From a virus (lineage: Duplodnaviria; Heunggongvirae; Uroviricota; Caudoviricetes), in IMG/VR virus record IMGVR_UViG_2698536560_000009, positions 1 through 25,337 of that record: a DNA stretch of 25,337 bases; one strand, 5' to 3'. Within the stretch, counting starts at the first letter, position 1. Each line of letters opens with the position of its first letter. This document shows positions 1 to 24,707 of the stretch, in pieces. A program made the translations under genes and the position numbers. The notes under the pieces are model-generated. The model did no database searches and was not told where the DNA came from. It saw only the letters and a program-made list of their open reading frames with translations.

Positions 1-324
1 TCAACTTTGTCCCTTATAGACGTTCTGCCATACGACGATGGAACCTACCTTAACAAATGATTCTTCGGTCAGGCTTCTATTAGTACCGCCATATACAATC
101 GGTATCCCAGTACTGGGTGAAGTACTTCGAGAGTTAACCGTCCCAGTACTGGGATAGTTTACCCCCTGATCTCCAACACGCATCATCTGGGAGGATGCAA
201 CGTAAGATAGTGCTGCTACACCAACACCAATAGCGATAGATGCAGCAAGACCTACGGCTGCATAGGCAGCGGCGGCGGCTGATGCACCTGCTATTACTGC
301 TGTTAATACGGCTGCTACTGCCAT
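1..324 (-). CDS. hypothetical distal-tail-module protein (lambda gpI position), hydrophobic Ala/Gly-rich N-terminus
   Basis: ATG at 322-324 on minus strand, TGA at 1-3. Last gene of the minus-strand tail block. First ~40 residues are A/G/V-rich and hydrophobic. Contains two CCCAGTACTGGG palindromes encoding P-S-T-G. No family recognised. Confidence 0.4.
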   Translation of the reverse strand: MAVAAVLTAVIAGASAAAAAYAAVGLAASIAIGVGVAALSYVASSQMMRVGDQGVNYPSTGTVNSRSTSPSTGIPIVYGGTNRSLTEESFVKVGSIVVWQNVYKGQS

Positions 325-325
325 G

Positions 326-715
326 TTATTTCCCTCCGAATCTATAAATTTTATAATTGTTTTCTATTGGTTCATATTTCATTACTGCATAAACACCATC
401 GATTGAAATGATTACTTTGCCTCTCCAGTACACAGTAGATTGGGAGCCAGTAATTAGGATATCCCCATCAAATGGTTCTACTTGTTTTGTACCCAGATCA
501 TTACATAGGGCATTTAGTGATTTATATGAACAATGTTCTTTTGCGTACTTTCGACCGCCAGTAGGTGACGTATATCTCTGATAGATTTCGTCCCTGTAAT
601 TTGTACCAAGAAGCATATCAATAACAGTCAGCGACATGATATGACAATCATTTTCACCGTATACAATTGGCTGACCGATTAGAGTACTAAGATATTCTGT
701 AATAAATCCATTCAT
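326..715 (-). CDS. putative tail tip assembly protein (gpK position), possible Cys/His peptidase-like
   Basis: ATG at 713-715 overlaps the upstream stop as TAATG. 129 aa with an N-terminal GENDCH motif and a later His, weakly reminiscent of NlpC/P60-type tail proteins. Function inferred mainly from position. Confidence 0.35.
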   Translation of the reverse strand: MNGFITEYLSTLIGQPIVYGENDCHIMSLTVIDMLLGTNYRDEIYQRYTSPTGGRKYAKEHCSYKSLNALCNDLGTKQVEPFDGDILITGSQSTVYWRGKVIISIDGVYAVMKYEPIENNYKIYRFGGK

Positions 716-1359
716 TATTTTTTACTCGCTTGCCAAAACTGTTCTGAACTATTTAGTATTCCGATTAGGTCAAAGAACTTATCACCCTTGTGGGTTGATT
801 GGTGAATTGATGTACTTGATAGTAGACGTTGTGTCTGGTCTAATTTCTTCCATATAGAATTAAGATTAACAGTGGTTTCATTCTGTGTGTTAGTTCCATC
901 TACAGAAAAATCACTGCTAAAATAATCTATATACCCACTAAAAATACGATAACGGTAAAGAAGTGCACCTGTTGCAGGGTTAACGATCCCCATCCAGATA
1001 TTAACTTTGGCATCTTTCCACAATCCTCTTAAAGCAAGGGAAAGATAATCCTGGCTTACGTTACTAATCTTAAACGTAGTACCGGTATTATTAATCTGAT
1101 TCTTTTCTACATAGTTCGCAAAGGATGAATCAATTAGATCTGGAATTGGTTTATATACAATGCCATTAATATTCTGTTCTACTACTGCATCAGTAAGATA
1201 TAAATTACTTCCTGTAGGAGGTAACAGATCAATCAGTTTTACCATGATTCCACACTGGTATAATTCCCTTTCTGTAAGAACTGACTTATTATCACCTCTC
1301 ATTAGATTCCAGTACTTTACTAATTCTGGGTTACTTAGTACATCGTTTGGAATTGCCAT
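715..1359 (-). CDS. minor tail protein (gpL position)
   Basis: 214 aa ORF with ATG at 1357-1359, directly downstream of the gpM-position gene in the tail block. No specific motif recognised. Confidence 0.4.
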   Translation of the reverse strand: MAIPNDVLSNPELVKYWNLMRGDNKSVLTERELYQCGIMVKLIDLLPPTGSNLYLTDAVVEQNINGIVYKPIPDLIDSSFANYVEKNQINNTGTTFKISNVSQDYLSLALRGLWKDAKVNIWMGIVNPATGALLYRYRIFSGYIDYFSSDFSVDGTNTQNETTVNLNSIWKKLDQTQRLLSSTSIHQSTHKGDKFFDLIGILNSSEQFWQASKK

Positions 1360-1360
1360 A

Positions 1361-1915
1361 TTACCCCCTTATATTCTCAGTTGCCGTAATTGTCATCTCA
1401 ATAATATTTGTACTTGGTAGATCATATGTAGAGTTAGCAGGTGTAAGAATAAAAGAACCCATTAGATTATCGTATTTTACAGTTTCCCCTATCTGGAGAT
1501 TTCGGATCAGTCCAGGGTAGATATTCAGAGTCGTTCCACTACGGGCAATAACACGATAGAGTTTTTTGTGTCCTGAGAATTGAATTAAATCACCAGGGGA
1601 AAGGTTATTAGTATTGGTCTGAATAGATGTAGCTCCGGCAGTACGGGCTGCTGTTACCTGTATACCCGTCGCCTGATTGCCTGAATAATCGCCCCACCAA
1701 CCAAGAGACATATCAAAAGGTCTGCCACTAGAATAGAGTGCAAGAAAGTTTGTTAAATCGGTTCTGTATTTTTTATTTGTTGTAACCTTAAAACTTATGC
1801 TGAAGTACTGTGTTCCGACAATACGGGTAATTACCTCACCAGACCATGTTTTGTTTTGGTATTGGGGGATATTATCAGAAAGTATAAAATCACTTATTAG
1901 AGAGTTATTAAACAT
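1361..1915 (-). CDS. minor/distal tail protein (gpM position)
   Basis: 184 aa ORF with ATG at 1913-1915 and an AGGAAAA Shine-Dalgarno just upstream. First gene after the tape measure gene, the usual position of the distal tail protein. Confidence 0.4.
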   Translation of the reverse strand: MFNNSLISDFILSDNIPQYQNKTWSGEVITRIVGTQYFSISFKVTTNKKYRTDLTNFLALYSSGRPFDMSLGWWGDYSGNQATGIQVTAARTAGATSIQTNTNNLSPGDLIQFSGHKKLYRVIARSGTTLNIYPGLIRNLQIGETVKYDNLMGSFILTPANSTYDLPSTNIIEMTITATENIRG

Positions 1916-1931
1916 ATATTTTCCTTATAAA

Positions 1932-1949
1932 GCCCACATGAATGTGGGC
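1932..1949 (-). terminator. intergenic hairpin downstream of the tape measure gene
   Basis: gcccaca / tgtgggc 7-bp stem with a 4-nt loop, between the tape measure stop and the next ATG. On the minus strand it is followed by UUUAUAAGGAAAA. It may be a partial terminator or an mRNA-stabilising hairpin. Confidence 0.25.
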
Positions 1950-1962
1950 ATACTGTATTTAC

Positions 1963-4224
1963 TTAGACGTTCCTCTGTTGGCTTTTACGTACTGCCTGAG
2001 TGATAGTATCGGCGTGTTTATCACACATACTCTGGAATTTTGAATCTGTGAGTTCTCCGGCACCCTGAATAATTAAAGGGGCATCAATTTTAATATCACC
2101 GCCTTTATCACCACCCTTATTATTCAAGTACTGTGTCAAGTCCTGGTTCAGAGATTTACCTACAACACGTTCACCTTTTTCAAGATTATATGTACCAGTC
2201 TTCGGTAGTGAGTCCCAGCCATCATGTGCCTGCCCTTCAATCTTTGTACCCTTAATCGTACTGACAATATTGGCACCTTCGGCAGCTACTTTAAGCCCTG
2301 CTGGAATCCCCATAGGCCATCCAAGTTTCATAGCCTCTGAAATACCCTGCTGAATATTGATAATAGACTGGGCAACTGCGATCCCTTTGCTCATTGCAAA
2401 TGCAGCTTTTGCCATAGCATTACTTTCACCAAATACACCTGCAAGAGTAGTACCGAGATCCTGAGCACCCGTTGCATACATAGAAAGTGTCTTTTGCTGG
2501 GCATCAATATTAGCCTGACTCATTTTGTCTGTAGTAGATTGTTGAATTGCTACCATGCGATCTTGGTAATCCTGATAACTTAATAACTTCTGTTCATACA
2601 GACTTTGATTCAGTGCTAATTCGGCCTGTCCTTCTGTTGCTAATGTATCGAGCGTGTTCTGATCGGCACTCATATTGAATGGATCTTGATTAAGTCCCAT
2701 ACGTTCGTTTTGACCTGCCAGTACTGAATTAAGGTCTTTCCCTGACATAGAACCACCAATTGCTGAAATATTCTGGGCAAGTTTAAGTGGGTCACTTTCG
2801 GTGAGCATTGAATCAACCATTTCTTTATACAGGCGTTTACGTGAATCAGTCTGCTTTCTTAATAGTTCAGTCTTTTCAGCTTCAGTTTTACCGAGAGTAG
2901 TTGCACTTGTTTTAATGCGTTGTTCTATTTCATCCTGGGTCTTATTAAATTGCTGTAGCTGGAGGGCAGCACCATTACCTGCAATACCATTCATAGTCTG
3001 TTCCAGTACTTTGGCAGCCTGAATACGATCCTTTGCGGCCTTATCACTGGCTTTTTTCGCTTCTTCCCCTGCTTTACCATCATCAAAGTTAGAACGCTCT
3101 TTTGTCGTTCCTGTATATGCCTTTGTGGTTGGTTTATAGTCTTCCTGAGAATATCCACGGGCAAGGGCAGCAAGACCACCAATACCTGGGCCTAGTGGTG
3201 AGAAAACTGCATCGGCTGCTGTCTGTACGTGTTTACGTCCTTTTGCTATTTGCTCTGGTGTAAACTCGGGTAATTCAAGGCCAATCTTTGAGCCTACATT
3301 ACGGATCATGTCATAGAATTTAATTACCTGATCGTATAACGACTGTATGATCGTATTATTTGAATCCCAGTTAAAGAATGAATTAATAAACTCAACTGCT
3401 TTTGTTTTGAGGTTGTCAAACCATTGATATATTTCCTTACAGGCTTTTACGAGTCCATTAAAAATATCAATGAGGGGTGTAACAATTTCAAATGCAAGAG
3501 TTTTCAGTCCACTACCAAGACCTGAAGTATTCTGACTTAACAGATCAAATGTTTTTGCCTGTTCATTAGTCATTGCTACGTTCTGGGCTGCAAGAGAGTT
3601 ATTAAATTCAATCTCACTGTTAAAAGAGTTGAATGTCGGTATTAGTTTTGCAGCATCACCACCGAGGGCGTTGATCATATTTGTTATTTCGGCAAGATTT
3701 GCACCATTCTTTTTCATATCAAAAAAGACTTTTGACAATGCCTGTAAACCACCATCTGCCTGTTTTAATGTCGGTATTAGGCTATTTACATCTACGCCGA
3801 ATGTTTTTAAGTCGGCACCAACACCAGAACCGTCAGCAGACGCAATACCAAGCTGGTCCATCACTGCTTCGTTAATCGAACCAACTTCTTCCATAGATAA
3901 TCCTATGGTTTTGAATGCTCCTGACCACTGCTGAAGTTGCTCGGCACTCAGTCCGGTTGTACGGGTCAATGCGTTGATCTCGTTTGCAAGACCAATTGTA
4001 TATGTAGTCAGTGCTGTAATAGCTGTAATTGCCAAGGTTGCCGCATTACCAACACCACCAAGACCAGTTGCCATTGTGCTTAGTCCACCACTAATACCAC
4101 CAAATACACCACCAGCACGATCACCAAAGTCGGCAAGTCCATTGCCAGCACTTTTTAAAGATTTTTGTAACCCAGATTCATCACCAGTGATTTCAAAAAT
4201 CATCTGTTGTTTATTCCCTGCCAT
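1963..4224 (-). CDS. tail tape measure protein
   Basis: 753 aa, Gly/Ala-rich N-terminus then long helical Q/E/K/A-rich regions typical of tape measure proteins. Lies immediately downstream of the G/GT chaperone pair; the GT stop (4226-4228) is 1 nt from its ATG (4222-4224). At roughly 0.15 nm per residue this implies a tail of about 110 nm. Confidence 0.8.
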   Translation of the reverse strand: MAGNKQQMIFEITGDESGLQKSLKSAGNGLADFGDRAGGVFGGISGGLSTMATGLGGVGNAATLAITAITALTTYTIGLANEINALTRTTGLSAEQLQQWSGAFKTIGLSMEEVGSINEAVMDQLGIASADGSGVGADLKTFGVDVNSLIPTLKQADGGLQALSKVFFDMKKNGANLAEITNMINALGGDAAKLIPTFNSFNSEIEFNNSLAAQNVAMTNEQAKTFDLLSQNTSGLGSGLKTLAFEIVTPLIDIFNGLVKACKEIYQWFDNLKTKAVEFINSFFNWDSNNTIIQSLYDQVIKFYDMIRNVGSKIGLELPEFTPEQIAKGRKHVQTAADAVFSPLGPGIGGLAALARGYSQEDYKPTTKAYTGTTKERSNFDDGKAGEEAKKASDKAAKDRIQAAKVLEQTMNGIAGNGAALQLQQFNKTQDEIEQRIKTSATTLGKTEAEKTELLRKQTDSRKRLYKEMVDSMLTESDPLKLAQNISAIGGSMSGKDLNSVLAGQNERMGLNQDPFNMSADQNTLDTLATEGQAELALNQSLYEQKLLSYQDYQDRMVAIQQSTTDKMSQANIDAQQKTLSMYATGAQDLGTTLAGVFGESNAMAKAAFAMSKGIAVAQSIINIQQGISEAMKLGWPMGIPAGLKVAAEGANIVSTIKGTKIEGQAHDGWDSLPKTGTYNLEKGERVVGKSLNQDLTQYLNNKGGDKGGDIKIDAPLIIQGAGELTDSKFQSMCDKHADTITQAVRKSQQRNV

Positions 4225-4225
4225 A

Positions 4226-4588
4226 TTATTTTCTTCCCATCCAGTTTAACATGTTAGCTCTCTGTTCTTCGGCGATCCGTTTCTCTCTCTCTTCGGCTTG
4301 TTCTTTAATGGTCTTATTGTTGATGATATTAAGAGAATCCAATTCTGTGATACTGAATTTCTTTAAGTCTTCCTTCTTAATATTCCCAGTACTGAGCCAT
4401 ATAGCCTGGAGTATTTCGGTATGTCTTACCTGTTCAATTCTGGAAGAATTTGGTTCTACAAAAGTGTCATATACAAATAGATAGATAAAAAGCGAAAAGG
4501 GCATGGTGCAGAGATCTTCCACACCACACCCTTTTGTCATCAGCATTTTTAGAGAAAGTTTAAGAAACGGATCGCCCCTTACTTTTTT
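4226..4588 (-). CDS. tail assembly chaperone -1 frameshift extension (gpT-like part of G-T fusion)
   Basis: This frame is open from 4588 down to the TAA at 4226-4228 and is the -1 frame relative to the G-like ORF. The slippery heptamer A_AAA_AAG sits at 4588..4582 on the minus strand, just before the G stop. The ORF-track Met at 4546 is internal to the extension. Confidence 0.6.
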   Translation of the reverse strand, partial: KKVRGDPFLKLSLKMLMTKGCGVEDLCTMPFSLFIYLFVYDTFVEPNSSRIEQVRHTEILQAIWLSTGNIKKEDLKKFSITELDSLNIINNKTIKEQAEEREKRIAEEQRANMLNWMGRK

Positions 4589-4869
4589 TCAATTTCTTCA
4601 ATATTCATAGCTTCGGTAAAAATACGCGTGATTTCGGTATTAAGTTTGATTTGATAAACCATGTCAATTTCGCTCTCTACCTGTTCTGGTGATTTAAAAA
4701 GTTGTTTACCATTGGCATCAACTACACAGTAATGGATTGTAGTGTACGGGTCACTACATTCACTATACTTAGAAATAGCTGGAAGACGAATATAAACAGT
4801 AAACCCCGGAGCAAGTTCAAAGGCATGTTTTTTGACACCAATTGCTGTCATTAGATTAGATAGATCCAT
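4579..4869 (-). CDS. tail assembly chaperone (gpG-like)
   Basis: 96 aa acidic ORF between the tail tube gene and the tape measure gene. Ends ...EIEKK-stop with the final codons GAA AAA AAG TAA forming a classic slippery site. Confidence 0.6.
   Translation of the reverse strand: MDLSNLMTAIGVKKHAFELAPGFTVYIRLPAISKYSECSDPYTTIHYCVVDANGKQLFKSPEQVESEIDMVYQIKLNTEITRIFTEAMNIEEIEKK
4582..4588 (-). other. programmed -1 ribosomal frameshift slippery heptamer A_AAA_AAG (G to GT)
   Basis: The minus-strand mRNA reads GAA AAA AAG UAA in the G frame. After a -1 slip it reads AAA AAA GUA AGG... into the open T frame. Confidence 0.6.
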
Positions 4870-4901
4870 GTGTATTTTTTCCTTATTATGATTATTTTAT
4901 A

Positions 4902-5378
4902 TTATGGTTTTGCTGCAATTTCACCAACTGCTACAGGTTCGCCCGTGATTGTCATAACAAATTCACGTGTTGCTACAGCGTCAAAATCGCCACCGACAAC
5001 ATCAGAACTAATATAGCCATTAACTATCGAGTAATAACCCACTCCATCGGTATCAGCGATGTTTTCGTAATAAGTTACTTTTACCTGCATAAGCGTCTGT
5101 TTTTGAGCTGCGGTAACTAACATCTCTTGACCTACTGCCCCTGGTTTCCAGTTCACCGATAGGGTTAGATCTGGCACAGAACGAGATCCTAAAAGCTTCT
5201 GTGCGTACTGCTTACCAAATGTATTTACTGAGATAATTGTAGACTCAGCACCTGCTGCTGCCGGGAAAGCTGCAACTTCTTCAATTACTGTAAAAGTGGT
5301 TGCCTGACCACCACCTGCTGGTGCTTCTGCAATTTCTACTACAACGTTATTCGCTGCGAAAATTCGATTAAAAGCCAT
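4902..5378 (-). CDS. major tail tube protein (lambda gpV-like N-domain)
   Basis: 158 aa, immediately upstream of the chaperone genes. The pattern LTLSVNWKPG...NGY...GDFDAV..REFV resembles the gpV tube domain and is shared with the N-terminus of the 560-aa protein at 8288-9970. Confidence 0.55.
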   Translation of the reverse strand: MAFNRIFAANNVVVEIAEAPAGGGQATTFTVIEEVAAFPAAAGAESTIISVNTFGKQYAQKLLGSRSVPDLTLSVNWKPGAVGQEMLVTAAQKQTLMQVKVTYYENIADTDGVGYYSIVNGYISSDVVGGDFDAVATREFVMTITGEPVAVGEIAAKP

Positions 5379-5399
5379 TTTAATTTCCTTATTTAATTA

Positions 5400-5435
5400 G
5401 GGTAACGTCCTGTTACCCGTTTCCTTTTTTTATTT
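5400..5435 (+). terminator. hairpin plus T-run, oriented antisense to the late operon
   Basis: gggtaac-gtcct-gttaccc stem-loop (5400-5418) followed by gtttcctttttttattt on the plus strand. It lies between the 964-aa gene and the tail tube gene. Confidence 0.3.
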
Positions 5436-8324
5436 ATGAAGATTGTAGTAATGCACATATAGCCCCAATCCGCGTAAAAGTTCACCCGAATAGAAACCAA
5501 AGAACATACTATTGTTTTCGGCAGTTGTTTCATTACCTGTTCTGATTGACGCAGGCCATGTACCATTCATTACATGATTTGGTGAAATAACTGCATAGTT
5601 AAGTTGTATTTCATCAAATAGTAATTGAATTAGCTCATGATCTGGATATCCGGCGATAGCCATCATACATGCCCCTGCTAACCATAGACCGGACATATGA
5701 GGGGTAAAGCCATCATATTCTACAGAACCATTATCCCTAAAATAGGTAGGAGCTTTACCGCCATTATTTTTCATGAACCATTTTAGATAGTTCATCCAGT
5801 TCTGGCAGAAAGATATTAGTTTAGGAGGTATTACAGTACTGTCTTGTCGTGACCATAATTCATGTACTGCATCACACCCACCAAAGAAAGCCCTTGGTTC
5901 GTATCCACTCCATGCTTCGGCGTACCAGTGCTGCATTATGAATTGATCTGGCTTACCATCAGGGGCATATGCTAAAGCGTCCTGTCTGTTCCATACGAAA
6001 GCCTGTGCACATGGTCCTGGTAATGATGGTTTAAATTTATTTGTAAACCATGCCTGAGAATCATATAGAAAATTGATACTGTTATTTAAGCGAGTATGAT
6101 CTATTTCTGTTCCTTTAAAGCACCAGATCGCCGGTAGTTGATAACCCGGATACGGTAGACCACGCCACCCAGAATATAACTGGGCATAGGGATCGGTAAT
6201 GTTAGAGAACGGAATTAAACCCGGAGTATACGCAAGACTATCTAGCATATAATCCTTAATAGTACAGTCACCTAAACGGGCTGTGTAACCATTACCAGTT
6301 GTGTCGTTAAACGTAAGCAGTACTGTGACCGAATAATCACCTGTCCCACCATCTGTATACATCGCAGGCAAATCATTAATACAATACCAGTCAATCTTCC
6401 CATTCACACCATTTACTGGATCTGCATCAAGTAGCAGTGTGAAAGATTCACGGTTCGTTAGTACTGGGCTTGCGGGAATAGGATCAGGTTGAATCCATTC
6501 TCCTGGGTTATCTGGATCTTCAATTTCGGGGTGATCGGGTTGATAACCGTTTAGTTTGAAGTCAGCAATAGTAAAAGTCTTTGTAACCCATTCACCATTT
6601 GTTGCAGGGAGCATAGCCCACCAACGCCATTTATTATCATCACTTATACGAAAGTTAAAATCATCATCATATGAACGATAGGTAAAAGATTGAATATTGG
6701 CAGTCTCTGGTGTGAATATCCAAAACCCCACCACCTGTCCCCCGTCACCATCCATTGTTGTAGACACGACGTTATCGTAATAATTTCCAAGTACTCCACT
6801 CTGATATTCAAAGTTTGTTACCGTGTTATCTCCATAATCGGCGATCATACGTAGATCAGCAGTCATATAATTAGAGCCATCTGGTTTCATTACACGTGTA
6901 AAACGATTCATAGGAATGTCCATTGTAGTGATAGAGCCATCTGGATTAGTCATTGGTAGACCACACCGATAATCAATTGCACCTTCTTCTGTTTTTGTTT
7001 TATTCACTGTGACTTCAGCAGAAACTGACATTGCAGTACTGGTATTATCAACACCACCATATTCAATATGAAACTTTGAGTTATTATTGAATTTAAACCA
7101 GATTGATTGTTGTTCTAACATCGTCTGTGCGGATGCACTTTGATTTATTACAATATAACCCTGTGCATCACGGGAATATGATGCTACTTGCTCACTTGGG
7201 TAGAAGTAGTCGTATGAAATACCATCAGTAAAAGGTGTTACGGCAATAGTAGATTTACGAAAGAACATATCGTACTTGTCAATATCTGAATATCCATAAC
7301 AGGTTAATAGTGCACATTGCCACGCAAGATAATACTGGCGTTCTCCTGTAATATCCCAAAGTAGCTTGGCTGCCTGACAAAACCATAATTCGGCATCTGA
7401 TGCATTATCAGAGAAGTCCAAAGAACCATAGTTATCAATCGGTACGTGTACAGGTCGGTTATGCCAGCGTTCATTACGCTTGAACATATACCCGCCATGT
7501 TCTACAGGGTTTCGGGTTGCATAGTTAAAACGATATTCACCAGTAATGGTTTTATTCTTTAACTGTACTGTACCTTCCTGACCAGTTAGACCGGATTGCA
7601 GTACAGTGCCGTTTGAGTCTACCTTACGTCCGGTACGATCAATGATCCATTCGACGTCATAGGTTGGTGCTTTAGTGTCCCAGTCTATTGAGTCTTCATT
7701 GGCAAGCCACAGATAAGCAGTTGCGTTAACCTGATTCCAGCCAAGTCCCGCACGCTTAGGGAAGGCAAACCATACTGCATCGAGGTATTCACCCCAGTGT
7801 GGTGCACCATGTGGGATCTTTGTAAGGCCATTAGCCCATGTGAATAGTGTCCCTTTAAAACCGCCATGCGTCGGATATTCTGGATCTAATGGGTAGTGTG
7901 CCAGTACTGGAGCCTTCCCATTACAAATCCAATTACAGCGTAGTGATGAACTCGGTGGATCTGGAAATGGTGCACCACGATAGAACGCCTTGTGATATGC
8001 GTTAAAGTACTCTTTTGCCTTCTGTAGATAGAAAGGGTCTTTAGTTGCCTGATACACATATATTGCCCCCAGAATCTGGAGGCTTTGACCTTCTGTAGTT
8101 GCATCACCTTCCGGCTGTGCCTCCCATCCAGTTTCTGCAATAAAGTGACGGTTGTTTGCAAGTACATTATCTGGGTTTAATACATAGTGCTGTGTCTTAT
8201 TATTTGTTGTAAGGCCAGTATTACGTGCCAAGAACTTAAACTGACCTTCGATCATTTGATATGCATTATCTATATTGTGTGGTTTCATTATTTCATATCT
8301 GCCATTAGTAGAGAGCCGTACCAA
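5430..8324 (-). CDS. large virion-associated protein, possible carbohydrate-active/receptor-binding enzyme
   Basis: 964 aa (952 aa if ATG at 8286-8288 is used instead of the TTG at 8322-8324, which has a GGGGG Shine-Dalgarno). Very rich in W/Y/F with Gly-aromatic motifs such as GFTPHMSGLWLAGACMMAIAGYPDHE and FFGFYSGELLRGLGLY, which suggest a glycosidase-like fold. The functional call is inference only. Confidence 0.3.
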   Translation of the reverse strand: MVRLSTNGRYEIMKPHNIDNAYQMIEGQFKFLARNTGLTTNNKTQHYVLNPDNVLANNRHFIAETGWEAQPEGDATTEGQSLQILGAIYVYQATKDPFYLQKAKEYFNAYHKAFYRGAPFPDPPSSSLRCNWICNGKAPVLAHYPLDPEYPTHGGFKGTLFTWANGLTKIPHGAPHWGEYLDAVWFAFPKRAGLGWNQVNATAYLWLANEDSIDWDTKAPTYDVEWIIDRTGRKVDSNGTVLQSGLTGQEGTVQLKNKTITGEYRFNYATRNPVEHGGYMFKRNERWHNRPVHVPIDNYGSLDFSDNASDAELWFCQAAKLLWDITGERQYYLAWQCALLTCYGYSDIDKYDMFFRKSTIAVTPFTDGISYDYFYPSEQVASYSRDAQGYIVINQSASAQTMLEQQSIWFKFNNNSKFHIEYGGVDNTSTAMSVSAEVTVNKTKTEEGAIDYRCGLPMTNPDGSITTMDIPMNRFTRVMKPDGSNYMTADLRMIADYGDNTVTNFEYQSGVLGNYYDNVVSTTMDGDGGQVVGFWIFTPETANIQSFTYRSYDDDFNFRISDDNKWRWWAMLPATNGEWVTKTFTIADFKLNGYQPDHPEIEDPDNPGEWIQPDPIPASPVLTNRESFTLLLDADPVNGVNGKIDWYCINDLPAMYTDGGTGDYSVTVLLTFNDTTGNGYTARLGDCTIKDYMLDSLAYTPGLIPFSNITDPYAQLYSGWRGLPYPGYQLPAIWCFKGTEIDHTRLNNSINFLYDSQAWFTNKFKPSLPGPCAQAFVWNRQDALAYAPDGKPDQFIMQHWYAEAWSGYEPRAFFGGCDAVHELWSRQDSTVIPPKLISFCQNWMNYLKWFMKNNGGKAPTYFRDNGSVEYDGFTPHMSGLWLAGACMMAIAGYPDHELIQLLFDEIQLNYAVISPNHVMNGTWPASIRTGNETTAENNSMFFGFYSGELLRGLGLYVHYYNLHK

Positions 8325-9970
8325 GTACTACCCCCGTCTACTGTGACAAACTGAAATACATCAGTAGAATCTTTTGTAAAGGTTAATACTGGAACACGCC
8401 CATAAGACCATAAAATGTTTGTAGGCCAGGATATTTTATTTGCCCCTGTACCCTGCTTAATAAGCACCTGAAATGTTTGACTCTTTTTGTCATTACCACT
8501 TGCATTTAGTACAGAGAAGTTTGACGTTGGTTGTGATAGAGTCACGGTGAATGTAGTTTTACTATCACTCAAATCTATTTCTAATGAATTATTTACAAGG
8601 GTATTTAGTTTAAGAATATCATCTACAATTGTTACCTTCGTATCAATATCTTCCTTCAGAACCTTGTCTTTGTCATCGATCTGTTTCTTTGAATATGTTC
8701 CTACATCATCAAAATTCAGTACTATATTACTGTTAAGAGCATACCCGTTAATAGTGGTGATACGTAGTGCAAATAGATCATTTGACTGGGTACGTGAGTA
8801 CACATCAGGAATATCAGCAGCAACTAATTGAATGTTAGTTCCTGATAATGGCTTATTGTTGATTAAGTATGTTTTTGGTACATATGTGTTATTAGTAAAA
8901 ACAATACTTGCCATATCTGGGAGTTGTGCGGCTGTCAGTGTTATATTCTGGGAAAGACTTAAACCGTTAACAGTAGTTGTTTTTTTAACAAATGAAGTAT
9001 CAACCTGAGTCTGTGAATACACATCAAGAATATCTGCGGCAACTAAGTTTAATGCCGTACCGGATAGTGCATGACCGTTTAACTGGAATACTTTTGGGAC
9101 TACGTTCTGATCTATATACGTCTTACTGTATACATCAGCGATATCAGAAGCCAGTAGTGTAATATTAGCAGTTAGTGGTTTGCTATTGATAGTACGGGTA
9201 ATCGGTACGTAGTCTGCAAGGGATGCACTTGATGCAGCACCCAGTTCTGTCAGTGTAGGTTTATCAGCACTGGTATAGACCTTGTACCATGCCCCCATAG
9301 ATGCACCATAGTTACGCACGTTAATTATTGGCGTACCTGTCTTACTGATAACCAATTGTGTACCAAAGTTCGAATCAAGGTTATTAATACCGAGTACATC
9401 TGTCCCTGTTGGTGAACCTGCACCAGGGATCTTAATAAAAGCATTACCGTCACGCCCCTGATAACTTGGAAACTCAATACCGTTTGCACCTACGCCCCAG
9501 TCTCCGCGATTTAGAGGGACTATCGTACTGTCAAGAATACCCGAAGAAAGTTGTTCGTTTGGGGTGAATACGTAGGAACGGGAAGTAACAGAATCATAAT
9601 CACCACTGGTGGATACAGAAGCCAGATAACCATTATAAAGTGCATAGTTAACCGTAAGGTCATTCTGTCCTTCATCGGGGATCTCTACCTTCATTTGTAC
9701 TAATTGGCGACTTTTTACGATGTCATCAAGAAACTTATGTTTAGCAGGAACCCAGTTAACCGTAATAGTGACATCACCATATGTGCTATCACCTGCTACT
9801 TTTTCGATGTATTCAGAGTCATATGTTTCAATAGCAAGGGTTGCAGTACTGTGACCGAATGAAGGGAACCCGCTTAATTCTGGTACTTCTTTAAATCCCT
9901 TCGATTTGGGGTCACTGTTTAATGTGTCGGTGTTAATCCATACACTTGTGTTGTTAGTAATAAAAGCCAT
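8288..9970 (-). CDS. tail protein with gpV-like tube N-domain and C-terminal tail-fibre-type repeats
   Basis: The first ~140 aa align by eye with the 158-aa tube protein (VNW.P, NGY, GDYD.V..R.YVFT). This is followed by about five ~37-aa repeats of the form (I/V)N(S/G)KPLSG.NI.L.AADI.DVYS.T, resembling the phage tail fibre repeat seen in side tail fibres. Confidence 0.5.
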   Translation of the reverse strand: MAFITNNTSVWINTDTLNSDPKSKGFKEVPELSGFPSFGHSTATLAIETYDSEYIEKVAGDSTYGDVTITVNWVPAKHKFLDDIVKSRQLVQMKVEIPDEGQNDLTVNYALYNGYLASVSTSGDYDSVTSRSYVFTPNEQLSSGILDSTIVPLNRGDWGVGANGIEFPSYQGRDGNAFIKIPGAGSPTGTDVLGINNLDSNFGTQLVISKTGTPIINVRNYGASMGAWYKVYTSADKPTLTELGAASSASLADYVPITRTINSKPLTANITLLASDIADVYSKTYIDQNVVPKVFQLNGHALSGTALNLVAADILDVYSQTQVDTSFVKKTTTVNGLSLSQNITLTAAQLPDMASIVFTNNTYVPKTYLINNKPLSGTNIQLVAADIPDVYSRTQSNDLFALRITTINGYALNSNIVLNFDDVGTYSKKQIDDKDKVLKEDIDTKVTIVDDILKLNTLVNNSLEIDLSDSKTTFTVTLSQPTSNFSVLNASGNDKKSQTFQVLIKQGTGANKISWPTNILWSYGRVPVLTFTKDSTDVFQFVTVDGGSTWYGSLLMADMK

Positions 9971-9973
9971 AAA

Positions 9974-10410
9974 TTATTCCCCATAGCTAAAAGATATAGT
10001 TTGTGTATGCACATACATCGTATTAGTTGCTTCGGCCTGGGTAGTCATTAAGCTCTCTTCCAGAACAACATTGAAAACATCCATTGGAAGTAGTTTGTTC
10101 AATTCATTAATAAAACCACTTGCATAGATTGCATCAATCACTTTACTAATTTCATCTGATGCAAGTTTATAATTTTCGCCTACTGCTACAAAGTCCACTC
10201 TAAATTCACAGAGATAATTAATCCCACGTGGTATTAATTGACCATTAATTAATGTATTTGCTTTTTGAATGCGTGAACGTGTTACAGTACTGTCACCGAT
10301 GTATAACATTGGTTTGTCGTCTACCGTTGCTCTCGATTGATATTGAAGATTTACCAAAGTACTGAGATTATTAATCAAAAATTTCCGTATTGTGTAGTCT
10401 GAAGTTCGCA

Positions 10411-10411
<1 letters not shown>
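9974..10411 (-). CDS. putative neck / tail completion protein
   Basis: 145 aa ORF between the capsid gene and the tail genes, with TAATG start/stop overlap to the upstream gene. Assigned by position only. Confidence 0.3.
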
Positions 10412-12554
<2,143 letters not shown>

Positions 12555-13998
12555 GGGTTAGTACTGGTGAATAGCCCATCTCAGAAATTATTTGTTCTTT
12601 ACTCTTTAATCCATTTTCCATTGCGAGAATCTCAGTCTGTAAATCTTTCAGTGGGTCTAGACTAATATGACGTTGTGGAATGAAATTACATTCAGTTAGT
12701 TCAGTAAATTTACTAAATGGCAAATCCTTCAACATCGGGTTATTTAGCATTTCATTCTTGAGCCACTTAATATACAAAGGTTGAAGTACTGACTTAACCA
12801 GGTTGTTTTGTTTTGCAAGAAATGTATTTTGCTGAATTTTGTCTGTTAACTTCGAGGCACTGAATGATGCCCCTGCGGTCGAACCTGTTAACGTCTGTGG
12901 TGTAAGATCGAGTGACATCCCTATGAAAATCAACTGGTTATCTAGAAATTCCTGTAGTGCGTCGAATGTTTGTGATGGACTGAGTGACTTCACATCTTGA
13001 CCCTCACGAAGTTCTAACAGTACTCCACCCTCCATACGTGCAACCTGGTATTCATCTACATCAGAATCGTCATCATCATCAATATCTTCAAATGATGCAT
13101 CACGTGACGCATTCGTGATAAAACCCATGCTTTCCGCTGCTAATTGTCGCGTCTTGATTGACGCCCTCATGAATTTATCCAGGTCTGCCAGTAGTCCAGT
13201 ACCGCAAAATATATCGGGAATGCCGCGTTGCTGTTCTGGATAGTCAGTACTGAATAAGTGAAGGATCTCTTCTGCGGGTACACGTTCTGCTTCAGTACTA
13301 ACTGAGTACGATACGGGGTCATATTGTGTTAGAAAGTAAGCAACGGGTTTACCAGTGCCTTTTTCAAACTCAATACCATTTGAACGATAGTTACCATTAC
13401 TTAGCCATTGATTACCTTTCGTATCAATTACAGTACTGTCTAGTACTTCAATCTTCATACCAGGATGGATACGAATAAAACAACTACCATCAATTGAACG
13501 TGTCTTCTCTACCAGTGACTGGAATTTGGACATTTCAAGTTTTCCATTTAGGGAAAAACGTGCGGGGTCTTCACACCATGAGTAGAACGCATCGGCGAGA
13601 CGTTTATTAATATCATTATTAACATTGTCATCTTCAGCAACGTGAACACATGGACGATACGTAATACCATTTGCACCACATACACTACTGGCATTCTGTG
13701 CAATATACTTCTTATGAATTGGGTTACTCATACTAAGCTGGCGACTTTGTAGTACTGCCGTGTTCAATACACGGTTAATTACGGCATTGATCGAGCCACT
13801 CTTACCAACTGCACCAAATGTACCAAGTTGTGCGGCTGCGTTACCGTTACCGATGGAAGAAATGGAACGTTTGGTTTCAATACCTAAATTACCAAGTACT
13901 GGTTCAGTACGTATTTTTGCCTTACCAATATATAGTTTTGGTTCTTCTTTTGGCTGTTCCTTTGCCTTTCTAAAATTAAAATTAAACATATTCCCCTC

Positions 13999-14475
13999 TT
14001 ATCTTGTAAAACGTGTAATTGATTTGATGGGGTTGCCCGTCTTAACTTTTCGTACACGTGCCTTTTCATCTGCAAGTTTCTTTGCATATACTTGTCGCAT
14101 ACGGTAAAGTACTTCAGCACTTTCTGTTACTAGTGTTTTATTATTAATGGTAAGTTGTGTAGTACCACCCCCAAGAATCTTGGATTCAATAACCATATCA
14201 ATTTCATCGATCAATTCCTGTAACTGATTTATTTTATTTGCTGCTTCAAGTGGATCTTTAACAGTGAAAAGTTGTACAGACATACTACCATCGCTAATAA
14301 TTGCAGTACTGACACCAGCTACCCATTGAGATGTATCAATGGGTAAATTTGGAAAGTATTCTTGCTCATTACCTTTTGCATCAATGATTTTAATCGTTGC
14401 TGTTGATGGGAAGTCTAGTACTATAGTTTCACCAATAAAGATCGGGCTAGTTAAGTCCGTCTTACGTGGATTCAT
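13999..14475 (-). CDS. hypothetical head protein (gpW position between terminase and portal)
   Basis: 158 aa ORF with ATG at 14473-14475, lying between the large terminase and portal genes. No motif recognised. Confidence 0.35.
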   Translation of the reverse strand: MNPRKTDLTSPIFIGETIVLDFPSTATIKIIDAKGNEQEYFPNLPIDTSQWVAGVSTAIISDGSMSVQLFTVKDPLEAANKINQLQELIDEIDMVIESKILGGGTTQLTINNKTLVTESAEVLYRMRQVYAKKLADEKARVRKVKTGNPIKSITRFTR

Positions 14476-14487
14476 ATTAATTCCTTA

Positions 14488-16407
14488 TTAAAACCAGTTA
14501 CGATTATTAAGTGCTGAAAGTCCTTTTTTCTTAGGTTTTGATTTCTGCTTCTCTTTCTGTACTGGTTGTTGTTCTGCTTTAGTTTTTATGGATTCTTCTA
14601 CTTTAGTATTTAGTTCTTTTTGTTTAGCTCTATACTCTCGCAACTTCCTATACGGTTGTGCACCAAGTGCCTGTATCTTGTGATCAATCGCTGCTAATGA
14701 GTAGACGAGCGTATCGAGACATTCGTTACGCTCTCCATTTGGATTCTCCCATACCATCACTGAACCTTTTCGTACTAGTTTTTCTGCTGTAAGTTGGAGG
14801 AAGTAATCATCGACAAGGGAATGACTGAAGTGTATATTAGTACTATACTCTCCCCCTTCACATGCCTGTCGTAATAACTTCTTAACCTGGTGCTTCAGTA
14901 CTTGAGTATTAATATTAACCAGTTGATGTCCTGCCGTTGTGGAATCCTTCGTGATGGGACCAGTCTGTGTGTTTGCACCCTTAATTGCATGCCATCGTCC
15001 CCCACTGGAAGAACAAAAGCGATATATGGAACTGGTTGCAGATCCGTTTGAGCTATCAATAAAGGATCTCAGTACTGGTACTTTTCTACCTGAAGTGGTT
15101 TTAAATATACTCTTACTATAATTAAGTAGTTCAGTATATGCCTTATCTTCATACTTAGTACAATCGACACCATAAAACATACGGTGGTCCAGAACCCATA
15201 TATTCTTTTCATCAAATGCAATAGTACTACATTCTAAGCGGTCTATCTGTTGGTCACATGCCAGTACAATACCAAGTGCATTATCTGGAATATGTTTTAC
15301 ATCTAAATCAAAGTCGCGTAAGTTTTCCAGTACTGTAAGATCTTCTTTAATATTATTCTTATCTACCCACGGTAAACCGAGTACGTTATTATAGAAAGAT
15401 TGTTCTTCAAAGTTTATCCATGAGTTCTTAAAGTCTTCAACAATCTTCTCAATAGTAGTAATCGGTGAATATAGTCTATTAACATGGTATCCCCTGAAAC
15501 CCATCACATGCAGTCTGTGTGCTTTCCAGTAACCTTTTGCAACCATCCGTGCACGTTGCCCTTCAGTGATTACTTCATCACATCCTGGACAGTGTAGGCG
15601 TGCTGTAGTGGGTTCTGGTGCATTACGTCGTTCGTTGAACTTCACCCATTCAAACTTTATATTCTCCCATTCTAAAATATGGTCATGATCACAATGTGGA
15701 CACACGACATGAAAATGTCTCTGGTCTGAGAGTTCCCATTGCTGGCAGATCATATCGTCCTGTACTAATGGTGTGGAGGCCATCACGATCAGGGAGTTCT
15801 TACCAAACTGAGTTGCACGCTGTTCTATGAGTGATAGGGGGTTGCCCTCATCTTGTTCTGGATCTACACCTGATAATTCATCAATGAAGATTGCAGGAAC
15901 TGTAAGCGAGCGTAGGGACTGGCTAGAATTGAGGTTAACAAAGTATGTCTTAGTACCGTCAACGTTCTGTTGAGTGTGTAGATCGTTTACTGCATTCTTA
16001 TCTGATTTGTCAGTGATTAATGCTTGAAGGTTTGGACACGCATTAATAGTATCCATCCATTTACCAGTACGGAACTTTTTCACAGTACTACCACTACTAC
16101 CCGCAAATATCATATGGGAGGGTTTATTTGCCATCCTGTAAAGCATTGCATTTTGTAGTATTGTTGTCTTGAGTAATTGTGCACTACTCATTAAACAGAT
16201 CTTCTGTACTGATGGATCTACTGTGGCGTTTAGGGGTTCTACTTGAAATGAAAATAATTTAGTTTTTTGTTGTGCCAGTGGTCCATCTGGAAATACAGTA
16301 TATTGTTCACACCATTCAGATGGTTTAATCTTCGGTGGGGGTAATATTGATTTCAGACTCTGGTTCAGAATCTTCATCATCTTCTTCTGGCTGTTCTTCG
16401 TACTCAT
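14488..16407 (-). CDS. terminase large subunit (lambda gpA-like)
   Basis: 639 aa. Contains Cys/His clusters (CPHCDHDH, HCPGCDE) and an acidic IFIDELSG segment typical of gpA-family terminases. Follows a Nu1-like small subunit gene. Confidence 0.8.
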   Translation of the reverse strand: MSTKNSQKKMMKILNQSLKSILPPPKIKPSEWCEQYTVFPDGPLAQQKTKLFSFQVEPLNATVDPSVQKICLMSSAQLLKTTILQNAMLYRMANKPSHMIFAGSSGSTVKKFRTGKWMDTINACPNLQALITDKSDKNAVNDLHTQQNVDGTKTYFVNLNSSQSLRSLTVPAIFIDELSGVDPEQDEGNPLSLIEQRATQFGKNSLIVMASTPLVQDDMICQQWELSDQRHFHVVCPHCDHDHILEWENIKFEWVKFNERRNAPEPTTARLHCPGCDEVITEGQRARMVAKGYWKAHRLHVMGFRGYHVNRLYSPITTIEKIVEDFKNSWINFEEQSFYNNVLGLPWVDKNNIKEDLTVLENLRDFDLDVKHIPDNALGIVLACDQQIDRLECSTIAFDEKNIWVLDHRMFYGVDCTKYEDKAYTELLNYSKSIFKTTSGRKVPVLRSFIDSSNGSATSSIYRFCSSSGGRWHAIKGANTQTGPITKDSTTAGHQLVNINTQVLKHQVKKLLRQACEGGEYSTNIHFSHSLVDDYFLQLTAEKLVRKGSVMVWENPNGERNECLDTLVYSLAAIDHKIQALGAQPYRKLREYRAKQKELNTKVEESIKTKAEQQPVQKEKQKSKPKKKGLSALNNRNWF

Positions 16408-16846
16408 ATGATCCTAATTCCCTTAGTTTCTCATCAATCCTTTCTTCTAGTTTTATCCGCAATGTATCCGCATCTTCACTTTCAAATAGTTCTACATAGA
16501 TAGATGCCGGAATACTTCTTAGTACTCCGCGTAGTGCTGCAAAATAACCAGTTAGTGTTTGAGTTACATAATCAGTACTCAATACCTTTTCAGTACTGAT
16601 ATTTAATTCAATCTCAACTAAATCTGCTTCAAGTGATATCTTGCGTAATTTCTCTTTTTCAATCTGTTCTTTTACATCAGTATTTCGCAATGGTTGGATA
16701 ATATTAATTAGTATCCATTGATCTATTTCTTTTTTACTTGCTTTCTTTGGGTGTGGCATTCCACGTTTTGCCCATTCACGGCTTACAGTACTGTCATTAA
16801 CTCCCATACGTTCTGCAATTTCGTTTGTTGTATATCTATCGTTCAA
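16325..16846 (-). CDS. terminase small subunit (lambda Nu1-like, N-terminal HTH)
   Basis: The N-terminal TNEIAERMGVNDSTVSREWAKRGMP resembles the Nu1 winged-HTH (…IRTIQNWQEQGMP), and the C-terminus is acidic. The start codon at 16844-16846 is TTG; the first in-frame ATG would truncate the HTH. Confidence 0.6.
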   Translation of the reverse strand: MNDRYTTNEIAERMGVNDSTVSREWAKRGMPHPKKASKKEIDQWILINIIQPLRNTDVKEQIEKEKLRKISLEADLVEIELNISTEKVLSTDYVTQTLTGYFAALRGVLRSIPASIYVELFESEDADTLRIKLEERIDEKLRELGSYEYEEQPEEDDEDSEPESEINITPTED

Positions 16847-17514: not shown

Positions 17515-17516
17515 AC

Positions 17517-23561: not shown

Positions 23562-23696
23562 TTAATACCCTATCTTGCAAACCTATTAAGTTTGTAGAAT
23601 TACTGATGACTTAATAGAAAAAGTCATACTTGATTCAAAATCATTAAGGATGCATATTAAAGAAACGTTTACATTTCCCAAATAAGCATCAGTTCT

Positions 23697-23730
23697 AAAA
23701 CACCGGATTTATCATTGCATCTGGTGTTTT
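23697..23730. terminator. hairpin at the convergent junction of the plus-strand island and minus-strand small genes
   Basis: aaaacacc / ggtgtttt 8-bp stem with an 18-nt loop. The right arm overlaps the last codons of the 66-aa ORF. Confidence 0.25.
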
Positions 23731-23912
23731 GAATAAATTTCTATTAGTAAATCTCTGTGTAGATTAGTACTAGGTAGTTCTTGCAATAATTGTATGTTAT
23801 GCTTTTCAATTACTTGATAACCTAGCTCTAGTACTTCTACAATTCCTTTTTTAAAATCAAACTCATAGATGTACTCTCCATAGTTATGGTGTATAAAATT
23901 GACGCCTTTCAT
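23712..23912 (-). CDS. hypothetical small protein (second gene of coupled pair)
   Basis: 66 aa with a GAGGA Shine-Dalgarno 7 nt upstream. Its ATG overlaps the stop of the 103-aa ORF as ATGA at 23909-23912. Confidence 0.4.
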   Translation of the reverse strand: MKGVNFIHHNYGEYIYEFDFKKGIVEVLELGYQVIEKHNIQLLQELPSTNLHRDLLIEIYSKHQMQ

Positions 23913-24220: not shown

Positions 24221-24329
24221 TTTTATTATCCTCTGTAGTACTGGTATTTATTAAAAAGGTGTGATTCTATAATAAAGGCCAGTTTATTTTCATAGTCTAA
24301 TGGGTATACACAGACTCCCTACTCACTTT

Positions 24330-24690: not shown

Positions 24691-24707
24691 TTATTATATT
24701 ATAGTGT

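Follow-up and report, generated by a model that had tools for sequence, protein, structure and literature searches.

An octamer palindrome, CAGTACTG, is iterated throughout a family of small prophage-like elements of the Enterobacterales, one of which supplied the DNA described here: a stretch of 25,337 nt filed as a tailed-phage record (IMG/VR IMGVR_UViG_2698536560_000009), which we refer to at its full length as the window. The window is part of a prophage-like element of E. coli of about 35 kb, located between yggS and yggR, and 3.9 kb of it is 100% identical to the chromosome of E. coli strain N61. We show that the palindrome is specific to the element family and is not a motif of the host, that it is continually regenerated and acts at the level of double-stranded DNA, and that it is iterated in elements that otherwise avoid palindromes strongly. 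We also show that its excess is written by context-dependent choice of synonymous codons together with amino-acid replacements that create Ser-Thr and Val-Leu. Members of the family are elements of about 30–35 kb with 36–43% GC; their gene content comprises a large serine recombinase, a terminase of the lambda type, genes for head, tail and lysis, and a defence cargo that is variable.

The palindrome exceeds composition and codon controls

We counted 25 copies of CAGTACTG in the window, 24 of them within the structural genes (108–16793) and one at 25136–25143. The 24 lie exactly where an initial annotation made from the sequence alone had placed them, and dinucleotide-preserving shuffles returned a mean of 0.36 copies with a maximum of 3. 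That annotation had also held that the octamer never occurs in the accessory 8.5 kb. The statement fails by the one copy at 25136–25143, in an early 162-aa open reading frame (ORF), and stands for the defence cargo (17.0–23.6 kb), which has zero octamers and 2 AGTACT against 2.3 expected and serves as an internal negative control for the enrichment. The early end of the window (23600–25337) is enriched as well, with 7 AGTACT against 0.6 expected. The palindromes are nested, GTAC within AGTACT within CAGTACTG. The hexamer, put earlier at about 50 copies, in fact occurs 66 times in the window against 7.3 by shuffle, with 57 of the 66 in positions 1–16900, and GTAC occurs 167 times in the whole window.

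The excess persists when the encoded proteins are held constant. Synonymous shuffling within genes of the structural coding sequence (CDS) gave 1.74 ± 1.27 octamers (maximum 7 in 1000 shuffles) against 24 observed, 15.1 AGTACT against 57 and 90.5 GTAC against 136, so that the codon-preserving control proposed in the initial annotation did not reproduce similar counts. Shuffling of codon order in the same genes gave 0.45, 7.66 and 79.7, respectively. Two copies, at 11859 and 11964, are not independent because a 36-nt exact internal duplication holds both; they lie 105 nt apart in the acidic scaffold region of the capsid fusion (window 11825–12000).

The motif shapes codons and proteins

The octamer occupies two reading frames only, as xxC-AGT-ACT-Gxx encoding Ser-Thr (15 copies) and as xCA-GTA-CTG encoding Val-Leu (10 copies), and all 24 copies of 108–16793 sit in minus-strand structural genes. 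Three frames had been proposed for it; the Ser-Thr and Val-Leu frames stand, and the Gln-Tyr frame contains no octamer. The hexamer AGTACT does use all three, with 25, 5 and 27 copies by frame against 6.4, 1.0 and 7.9 expected, an excess of 3.4–5x in each. The codon pair AGT-ACT encodes 25 of 49 Ser-Thr dipeptides (51%, against 12% predicted by codon usage), and GTA-CTG encodes 17 of 45 Val-Leu dipeptides (38%, against 7%). The dipeptides are themselves in excess, Ser-Thr at 49 against 30.6 expected and Val-Leu at 45 against 27.3, and the reverse dipeptides are not enriched (Thr-Ser 21, Leu-Val 24). Across lineages the ratio of Ser-Thr to Thr-Ser climbs with AGTACT density (rho = 0.44). We conclude, as the initial annotation had suspected, that the DNA motif shapes the proteins: the dipeptide excess has no counterpart in the reverse dipeptides, and alignments show sites made by amino-acid replacement. 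Its further claim, that the pattern reflects selection on DNA and not a codon-pair effect, is borne out by the synonymous shuffle, the frame independence of the hexamer and the strand symmetry of half-sites, in the form that the cause is either selection or drive.

The motif has the symmetry of a double-stranded DNA site

For a family-wide scan of words, about 170 kb of family genes (window 1–16900 and loci L002–L017, L033, L037 and L081) were compared with their synonymous shuffles. AGTACT was found 497 times against 138 expected (3.59x, z = 33) and is the only strongly enriched one among the 64 hexamer palindromes; GTAC stands at 1.57x. Half-sites are enriched to similar degrees on the two strands (CAGTAC 3.56x and GTACTG 2.96x; AAGTAC 2.31x and GTACTT 2.49x). 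The family logo is [C 0.40 / A 0.35]AGTACT[G 0.37 / T 0.29], the lineage of the window favouring C...G more (about 0.6), and the family sites (n = 556) hold zero information past ±2 bp of the hexamer. Complementary flank bases are in excess at ±1 (P = 0.018) and ±2 (P = 0.0005) when stratified by locus and frame. Strand symmetry, frame independence and flank complementarity together point to a two-fold symmetric recognition of the DNA duplex. Octamers that deviate by one base do so mostly at the ends: 19 variants differ at positions 1/8, and the inner positions account for 8, 8 and 5. Among one-off neighbours of the hexamer, AGTATT/AATACT alone are not enriched (0.68x and 0.94x), most others standing at 1.3–1.9x.

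Some copies share longer flanks in unrelated genes. The shared flanks quoted in the initial annotation are all present: an 18-mer at 6317 and 9843, a 16-mer at 7901 and 11135, and a 13-mer that occurs four times and encodes D-S-T-V each time; there is a 15-mer too. Five octamer pairs share at least 15 nt, against 0.57 under a position-weight null (P = 0.003). Beyond this small excess in the window, flanks are not shared past the core as they would be in a short mobile repeat or a converted cassette. The suggestion of a short element spread by gene conversion accordingly lacks support as the main cause, given the lack of conservation past about ±2 bp and the origin of sites by point substitution, and leaves room for occasional micro-conversion.

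The motif follows the element family and not the host

Flanking E. coli DNA, 19 kb in total, contains 3 AGTACT (4.3 expected) and a single octamer; the enrichment ends at the element borders. Along the N61 chromosome AGTACT occurs 0–1 times per 2 kb outside the element and 4–12 times per 2 kb inside it, the exceptions inside being the recombinase gene (0), the cargo (0–2) and the distal tail-fibre gene (1). The idea of a host-wide iterated palindrome like HIP1 of cyanobacteria finds no support, since host flanks are at background and the trait tracks the element family through at least 13 genera.

To collect relatives we scanned with an alignment of large terminases; scanning IMG/VR with a single protein returned nothing. 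The alignment yielded two sets, 17 related loci and 72 usable IMG/VR contigs of 28–35 kb, about 90 elements in all, with 36–43% GC and from at least 13 enterobacterial genera. The hosts of the 17 loci are Pantoea, Mangrovibacter, Serratia, Raoultella, Phytobacter, Pseudocitrobacter, Cedecea, Pseudescherichia, Yersinia, Enterobacter, Citrobacter, Escherichia, Pluralibacter and Klebsiella. All 17 have 36–42% GC, and 16 of them carry 32–75 AGTACT per roughly 22 kb against about 7 expected (4–10x). Among the IMG/VR relatives, 61 of 72 show an AGTACT excess of at least 2x; the median over all 72 is 7.4x and the maximum 19x, a dense example being a contig with 110 AGTACT and 44 CAGTACTG in 21.9 kb. 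The check suggested in the initial annotation, a search for the same enrichment in related phages, thus came out positive in both sets of elements. We detected no AGTACT enrichment in distant prophages of other phyla with GpA-type terminases.

On the family average, AGTACT is equally dense throughout the interval from -10 to +11 kb relative to the terminase gene, in which some regions have genes on both strands. The head genes of the window are denser, which had suggested a fall-off with distance from cos; the even family average led us to reject such a gradient. Recently joined DNA, namely the defence cargo, the recombinase gene and an IS3 insertion, is without motif enrichment. Because family density is flat, we attribute the scarcity of copies in the cargo to its recent acquisition and not to a rule that confines the motif to structural genes.

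Sites are created anew in each lineage

In alignments of five core genes, 60–70% of site columns were unique to one element. The window and its closest relative, L002, which has 72% nucleotide identity to it over 12 aligned genes and 80–87% in the five core genes, share 13 sites; 21 are found in the window only and 5 in L002 only. Some of the differences run through amino-acid changes (PVL/PKL, STE/SAE and STN/ALN). The gene for a 964-aa tail protein has 7 sites in the window and 11 in the Klebsiella element L003, only 1 of them in common; several go back to replacements of Leu or Ile by Val and the like (GELLR became GEVLR and SGIVG became SGVLG, for example). Its homologue in the virulent phage PVP-SE1, 54% identical, has no sites, and PVP-SE1 as a whole has 0 AGTACT against 12 expected in 42.8 kb. 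We compared the conservation of AGTACT sites with that of control hexamers in six pairs of elements; the Jaccard indices (AGTACT/control) were 0.25/0.23, 0.10/0.07, 0.12/0.06, 0.15/0.07, 0.79/0.71 and 0.18/0.10, all within the control range. Individual sites thus vanish at a roughly neutral rate. Sites are created anew in each lineage, and we therefore conclude that the pressure is present-day and directional and that the motif is not simply inherited.

Palindromes are otherwise avoided

Restriction-site avoidance is the textbook pattern in phages and mobile elements and is equally seen in this family; for AGTACT alone the sign is reversed, at 3.6x over the synonymous shuffle in most of the family. 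The extreme case of avoidance is GCGC, which is absent from the window (about 32 expected) and from the family genes (0 against 199 by synonymous shuffle) and is at zero in 69 of the 72 IMG/VR loci. The N61 element has eight GCGC, all within its inserted IS3. Host flanks are rich in GCGC (145 in 19 kb), and E. coli DNA has about 1 GCGC per 130 bp and is GTAC-poor. Tetramers neighbouring GCGC are at normal levels, with GTGC and GCAC at 1.0–1.1x, which therefore argues for selection against the exact GCGC site; at those levels of the two intermediates we also rejected an origin of GTAC by double deamination of methylated GCGC. In the family scan CTGCAG occurs 0 times against 64 expected, CAGCTG 6 against 57, GGTACC 2 against 39 and CGTACG 2 against 21.5, and about half of the 64 hexamer palindromes lie below 0.5x. 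AGTACT is itself the site of ScaI and Eco255I and is avoided by the virulent PVP-SE1, by one E. coli prophage type and by one subclade of the family. As a separate observation, the coding strand is also poor in TATTTA (0.15x), A-tracts and GGAG (0.55x).

One subclade has lost the perfect hexamer

The AGTACT-poor subclade comprises L011, L090–L098, L100, L129 and the common E. coli type L169/170, with 0–9 copies per locus. In L169 AGTACT is at 0 against 7.4 by synonymous shuffle, which indicates an active purge of the hexamer. The subclade keeps 7–10 GTAC per kb, with a context-dependent GTAC excess of only 1.16x, and is still GCGC-free, the commonest E. coli type included. It holds many one-off derivatives of the motif in both orientations (CGGTACTG/CAGTACCG, CAGTACAG and CTGTACTA). 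The simplest reading is that restriction of the ScaI/Eco255I type broke each site of the subclade by one substitution; we infer such pressure on AGTACT because PVP-SE1 and the E. coli prophage type L171/L172 avoid the hexamer. The latter type is related to the family (large terminase 40.7% identical, capsid protein 44–45% identical, a small-terminase-like gene) and is without the trait.

A symmetric reader as the tentative explanation

The reading that we favour, tentatively and short of an even chance, is that the element-specific palindrome is kept by directional pressure from a symmetric DNA reader for which it serves as a tag of self DNA. The motif would be the recognition site of a two-fold symmetric protein that binds, modifies or nicks the DNA of the element; the number of dispersed copies would be favoured and not their positions. 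As a self-DNA tag it would follow a logic like that of uptake sequences or HIP1, and the reader might be encoded by the element or by the host. A more far-reaching possibility, which we consider rather unlikely, is that the two features of the family form a two-part barcode (rich in GTAC and CAGTACTG, free of GCGC) by which the life-cycle machinery tells element from host DNA. Were that true, a nuclease would attack host DNA at GCGC, to which the element is immune by having no sites, the palindrome would tag element DNA for protection, recruitment or packaging, and self would be told from non-self by oligonucleotide content and not by base modification.

Several results weigh against a reader. 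Since a subclade with zero to few copies persists in many genomes, elements can do without the perfect hexamer, and the pressure does not always prevail. The trait-free E. coli prophage L171/L172 has GTAC at 0.56–0.66x, no AGTACT and normal GCGC, and L073, with joining, portal and capsid genes at family level, has only a weak trait. Sites are not conserved above background, as a mutational or repair drive predicts, unlike those of HIP1 (PMC5861425). Spacing between sites gave no hint of a mechanism, showing the 3-bp coding period and no helical or long-range one, and the absence of a density gradient in the family average gave none either. No methyltransferase, conserved nuclease or other candidate reader was found in the element loci that were annotated or clustered. 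For the two other explanations offered in the initial annotation, the target of an orphan methyltransferase and a protein-binding array, these loci thus yielded no candidate protein. When ORFs were clustered, those shared by all 17 loci encoded the two terminase subunits, the joining, portal and capsid proteins, a head-tail protein of 98 aa and a tail-tube-like protein; nucleases of the HNH, GIY-YIG and OLD types are sporadic cargo across these loci. The small terminase subunit, the only universal DNA-binding protein among them, was rejected as the reader: its helix-turn-helix is near-identical in lineages whose C..G fraction is 0.57 and in others at 0.24–0.29, there is no AGTACT cluster upstream of its gene or in the putative cos region, and L171/L172 with its small-terminase-like gene is trait-free.

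Other candidates were set aside as well. The site of SlmA, the enterobacterial nucleoid occlusion protein, is a 12-bp palindrome, GTGAGTACTCAC, that has the AGTACT centre and the host group in common with the motif; its outer GT...AC is missing here, the base adjoining the hexamer being C or A, with G rarest and no GT at -3/-2. In the window, with its 66 cores, no site lies within one mismatch of GTGAGTACTCAC and 13 lie within three, against 8.8 by chance. A putative operator protein of the element was considered because its 12-bp palindrome TCCATTAATGGA shares CA.TA.TG with CAGTACTG, but the 10-mer array is found in this element only, and flank preference is practically the same with and without a homologue of the 162-aa protein, which 9 of 90 loci possess (0.38 against 0.37). 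As a source of the C..G flanks, very-short-patch repair by the host Dcm/Vsr system fits only sites of the CCAGTACTGG type, and ACAG... and TCAG... are equally common.

Alternative explanations

Elhai's model for HIP, a methylation-linked repair drive, would have a GTAC or AGTACT methyltransferase and a very-short-patch-type nuclease correct near-cognate sites to the palindrome with no benefit to the element. We regard it as unlikely, though with a real chance of being right. The nesting of GTAC, AGTACT and CAGTACTG parallels that of GATC, CGATCG and GCGATCGC, with outer-position variants as described for HIP (PMC4390886); turnover of sites is near-neutral, as it should be if they are continually replenished; of the one-off classes, only the C-to-T variant AGTATT/AATACT lacks enrichment; and only long-resident DNA is enriched. 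Yet no methyltransferase or Vsr-like gene was found in any element locus annotated or clustered, the depletion of transition neighbours is weak, and a system encoded by the host would enrich the host chromosome, which is at background, and would have to be present in at least 13 genera. The co-resident E. coli prophage L171/L172 is moreover opposite in its GTAC and AGTACT content. An inherited compositional signature, in which motif-rich codon usage came from a reservoir host or ancestor and is now slowly decaying, seems improbable to us. Codon usage does carry part of the GTAC excess: GTA makes up 56% of Val codons, and the synonymous-shuffle expectation already reaches 5–7 GTAC per kb. Both the small context-dependent GTAC excess of the AGTACT-poor subclade and the lack of the motif in new cargo would fit. 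Against this, lineages at 76–85% protein identity mostly differ in their sites, many of them through lineage-specific substitutions, the tail gene shared with AGTACT-free virulent rV5-like phages gained 7–11 sites at different places in two lineages, and decay cannot yield the 19x density seen in some lineages.

A function at the RNA level, in which the self-complementary CAGUACUG in the late transcript would pair with other copies or with a small-RNA seed and so control folding, stability or translation of the mRNA, appears quite improbable. It would suit the transcription of all enriched window genes from one strand, the frame independence of the motif, the excess of flank complementarity and the presence of a roughly 600-nt non-coding region with two AGTACT adjoining the early genes; the enrichment of the family is nevertheless uniform from -10 to +11 kb where genes lie on both strands, the symmetry of half-sites between strands extends to variants that are not palindromes (CGGTACTG occurs as well as CAGTACCG, and CTGTACT as well as AGTACAG), the window has no Rfam match, and an unextended 8-bp duplex would be expected to be weak in translated mRNA. 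Short-patch ectopic gene conversion, or a miniature mobile sequence, that copies an octamer unit of about 13–18 bp between unrelated genes is very unlikely as the general source. The identical 18-, 16-, 15- and 13-mers in unrelated genes, once in different frames, and the excess of pairs sharing at least 15 nt speak for it, whereas the information-free flanks of the family logo do not: flanks mostly differ, and aligned relatives show single-base routes and not inserted blocks. The D-S-T-V copies follow in part from a 10-bp palindrome, ACAGTACTGT, combined with the dominant GTA Val codon, and all 5 of 5 such family sites in that frame read D-S-T-V. To a by-product of codon-pair, dipeptide or amino-acid composition we give almost no credence. 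Protein sequence alone does lift the expectation from the codon-order to the synonymous value, and the octamer is confined to two frames, but the synonymous shuffle refutes this explanation; two unrelated codon pairs, AGT-ACT and GTA-CTG, converge on the motif far above their predicted usage, and the third frame is enriched for the hexamer too.

Relation to known iterated motifs

HIP1 (GCGATCGC) is cyanobacterial and chromosome-wide, with cognate orphan methyltransferases present and one-base deviants at outer positions (PMC4390886); its sites are conserved above neutral expectation and periodic (PMC5861425). It is the closest known phenomenon, sharing with the present motif a nested-palindrome octamer many-fold (tens-fold) above expectation, a location mostly in genes and deviants at the outer positions. 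Unlike HIP1, the motif described here rides a mobile element through many genera, with the host at background and not as a whole-genome property of the organism, and with no methyltransferase found in the elements. Its sites show near-neutral conservation, not the conservation above control motifs that marks HIP sites (Xu et al. 2018), and only a 3-bp periodicity.

In logic, uptake sequences come closest: they are short, occur about once per kb in coding DNA in several frames and bias the encoded peptides, as we observed here. The uptake sequences of Pasteurellaceae (USS) and Neisseriaceae (DUS) probably accumulate because their copy number, and not their position, favours transmission of the carrier DNA. 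They are asymmetric and chromosome-wide and are read by the uptake machinery of competent hosts, whereas the elements have a palindromic motif that is not enriched in the host chromosome. Chi and KOPS motifs are alike in that copy number and dispersion are selected because a DNA-processing machine reads them; they differ in their asymmetry and polarity and in being host-wide, and only one Chi octamer occurs in the window. In the literature we found nothing relevant on the octamer, on over-representation or methylation of AGTACT in enterobacteria or on over-representation of GTAC, and no earlier description of a prophage family that positively enriches a palindrome of the restriction type.

The element and its genes

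The element opens with the large serine recombinase, a few tiny ORFs, the 162-aa ORF and the defence cargo, which consists of a type I CBASS and unknown genes. There follow a Nu1-like small terminase, a GpA-type large terminase, the head-tail joining protein, the portal and a protease/scaffold-capsid fusion, and then siphovirus-type tail genes, a 1185-aa tail-tip fibre and a putative lysis block; a tape measure gene is also present in the structural block, which within the window takes in the beginning of the tail-tip fibre gene. In the N61 copy the IS3 lies inside the 964-aa tail gene. GC content is 39–40% in the structural part, 32–33% in the cargo and about 51% in the host. No replication module, repressor or excisionase was recognisable in the N61 element of about 35 kb (L085/L086), which has complete head, tail and lysis genes. 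A megablast search for close relatives among sequenced phages returned no match, the best large-terminase match being 34% identical. The features of the window are listed in Table 1.

Table 1 Blocks and octamer copies of the window
Positions	Feature	Reading frame (peptide)	Strand	Remarks	Basis
1..16846	Structural (late) gene block		minus	24 CAGTACTG, 57 AGTACT, 134 GTAC, no GCGC	ORFs, PHROG/Pfam, PGAP annotation of identical E. coli N61 copy
108..115	CAGTACTG, tail-tip fibre ORF	Ser-Thr (SPSTGI)		extended palindrome CCCAGTACTGGG	
144..151	CAGTACTG, tail-tip fibre ORF	Ser-Thr (YPSTGT)		extended palindrome CCCAGTACTGGG	
2719..2726	CAGTACTG, tape measure gene	Val-Leu (NSVLAG)			
4387..4394	CAGTACTG, 106-aa ORF	Ser-Thr (WLSTGN)			
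5834..5841	CAGTACTG, 964-aa tail protein	Ser-Thr (QDSTVI)		one of four TTACAGTACTGTC copies	
6318..6325	CAGTACTG, 964-aa tail protein	Val-Leu (VTVLLT)		18-mer GCAGTACTGTGACCGAAT common with copy at 9844, in other frame	
7034..7041	CAGTACTG, 964-aa tail protein	Ser-Thr (NTSTAM)			
7902..7909	CAGTACTG, 964-aa tail protein	Val-Leu (APVLAH)		16-mer common with copy at 11136	
9844..9851	CAGTACTG, 560-aa tail/fibre protein	Ser-Thr (GHSTAT)			
10285..10292	CAGTACTG, 145-aa ORF	Ser-Thr (GDSTVT)			
10881..10888	CAGTACTG, capsid gene	Val-Leu (GSVLIG)			
11136..11143	CAGTACTG, capsid gene	Val-Leu (APVLDS)		extended form TCCAGTACTGGA	
11445..11452	CAGTACTG, capsid gene	Val-Leu (RSVLVK)			
11684..11691	CAGTACTG, capsid gene	Ser-Thr (IRSTEK)			
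11840..11847	CAGTACTG, capsid gene, acidic scaffold region	Ser-Thr (ESSTEE)			
11859..11866	CAGTACTG, capsid gene, acidic scaffold region	Val-Leu (EPVLEE)			
11964..11971	CAGTACTG, capsid gene	Val-Leu (EPVLEE)		in 36-nt duplicate of stretch around 11859	
13245..13252	CAGTACTG, portal gene	Ser-Thr (LFSTDY)			
13431..13438	CAGTACTG, portal gene	Ser-Thr (LDSTVI)			
14304..14311	CAGTACTG, 158-aa head-tail joining gene	Ser-Thr (GVSTAI)			
15070..15077	CAGTACTG, large terminase gene	Val-Leu (VPVLRS)			
15328..15335	CAGTACTG, large terminase gene	Val-Leu (LTVLEN)			
16591..16598	CAGTACTG, small terminase gene	Ser-Thr (NISTEK)			
16786..16793	CAGTACTG, small terminase gene, helix-turn-helix region	Ser-Thr (NDSTVS)		kept in closest relative L002	
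16900..23600	Defence cargo, 32–33% GC: type I CBASS (2TM effector and cyclase) and six unknown genes		plus	no GCGC	
23600..25337	Early/regulatory end: 66-, 103- and 162-aa ORFs and 630-nt non-coding stretch		minus		
25136..25143	25th CAGTACTG, 162-aa early ORF	Ser-Thr (TFSTEK)		absent from the initial annotation	

In the type I CBASS, at 17005–18293, a SMODS cyclase (258 aa) comes after a SLATT/2TM effector (169 aa). The two genes stand at the head of 6.5 kb of cargo with 32% GC, in which the other six genes are without a family match. Two of them, at 21139–21840 and 22770–23561, encode paralogous proteins with a similar N-terminal transmembrane segment; homologues of this pair occur in 12 of the 17 family loci and are the most conserved non-structural gene family there. 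A remnant of the element (window about 15956–23561) is present in 88 other complete E. coli genomes, where the same cargo and the small terminase gene are retained along with only the initial ~445 bp of the large terminase gene. In strain 357900 (L168), the sole genome of these that was inspected, an IS3 bounds the cargo end of the remnant within a larger island. The defence cargo seems to outlive the phage genes.

Along its entire length the 964-aa tail protein (5430–8324) matches, at 54% identity, tail proteins of virulent rV5-like myophages (PVP-SE1 gp50, 4MG and others), so that the tail module is common to a small temperate-type element and to large lytic phages. The lysis genes of the N61 element include a SegE-like GIY-YIG nuclease, and a 45-aa HNH remnant lies near the recombinase. 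Between the genes for the 162-aa and 103-aa proteins an ORF-free stretch of about 630 nt (24220–24849), locally richer in GC and with two AGTACT, may be a non-coding RNA or an origin region; an Rfam search of the window, this stretch included, gave no match. An operator- or iteron-like array at 24708–24835, just downstream of the 162-aa ORF, is built on TCCATTAATGGA, with exact copies at 24783 and 24824 and degenerate ones at 24708 and 24803; three copies are about 20.5 bp apart.

Implications

Mobile elements are known for the loss of palindromes. One family does this to an extreme degree and yet raises a single restriction-type palindrome 4–19-fold, altering its own proteins as it does so. 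This implies a sequence-specific DNA-reading activity, so far undescribed, for these unstudied, widespread, defence-carrying small prophages, and it extends the range of HIP-like iterated palindromes beyond the chromosomes of cyanobacteria. A 35-kb element of E. coli, together with natural relatives free of the motif, offers a tractable system in which to study how such motifs arise and act. The signature of the family (GTAC-rich, GCGC-free, about 38% GC) also serves to recognise its members and to date the DNA that they have acquired.

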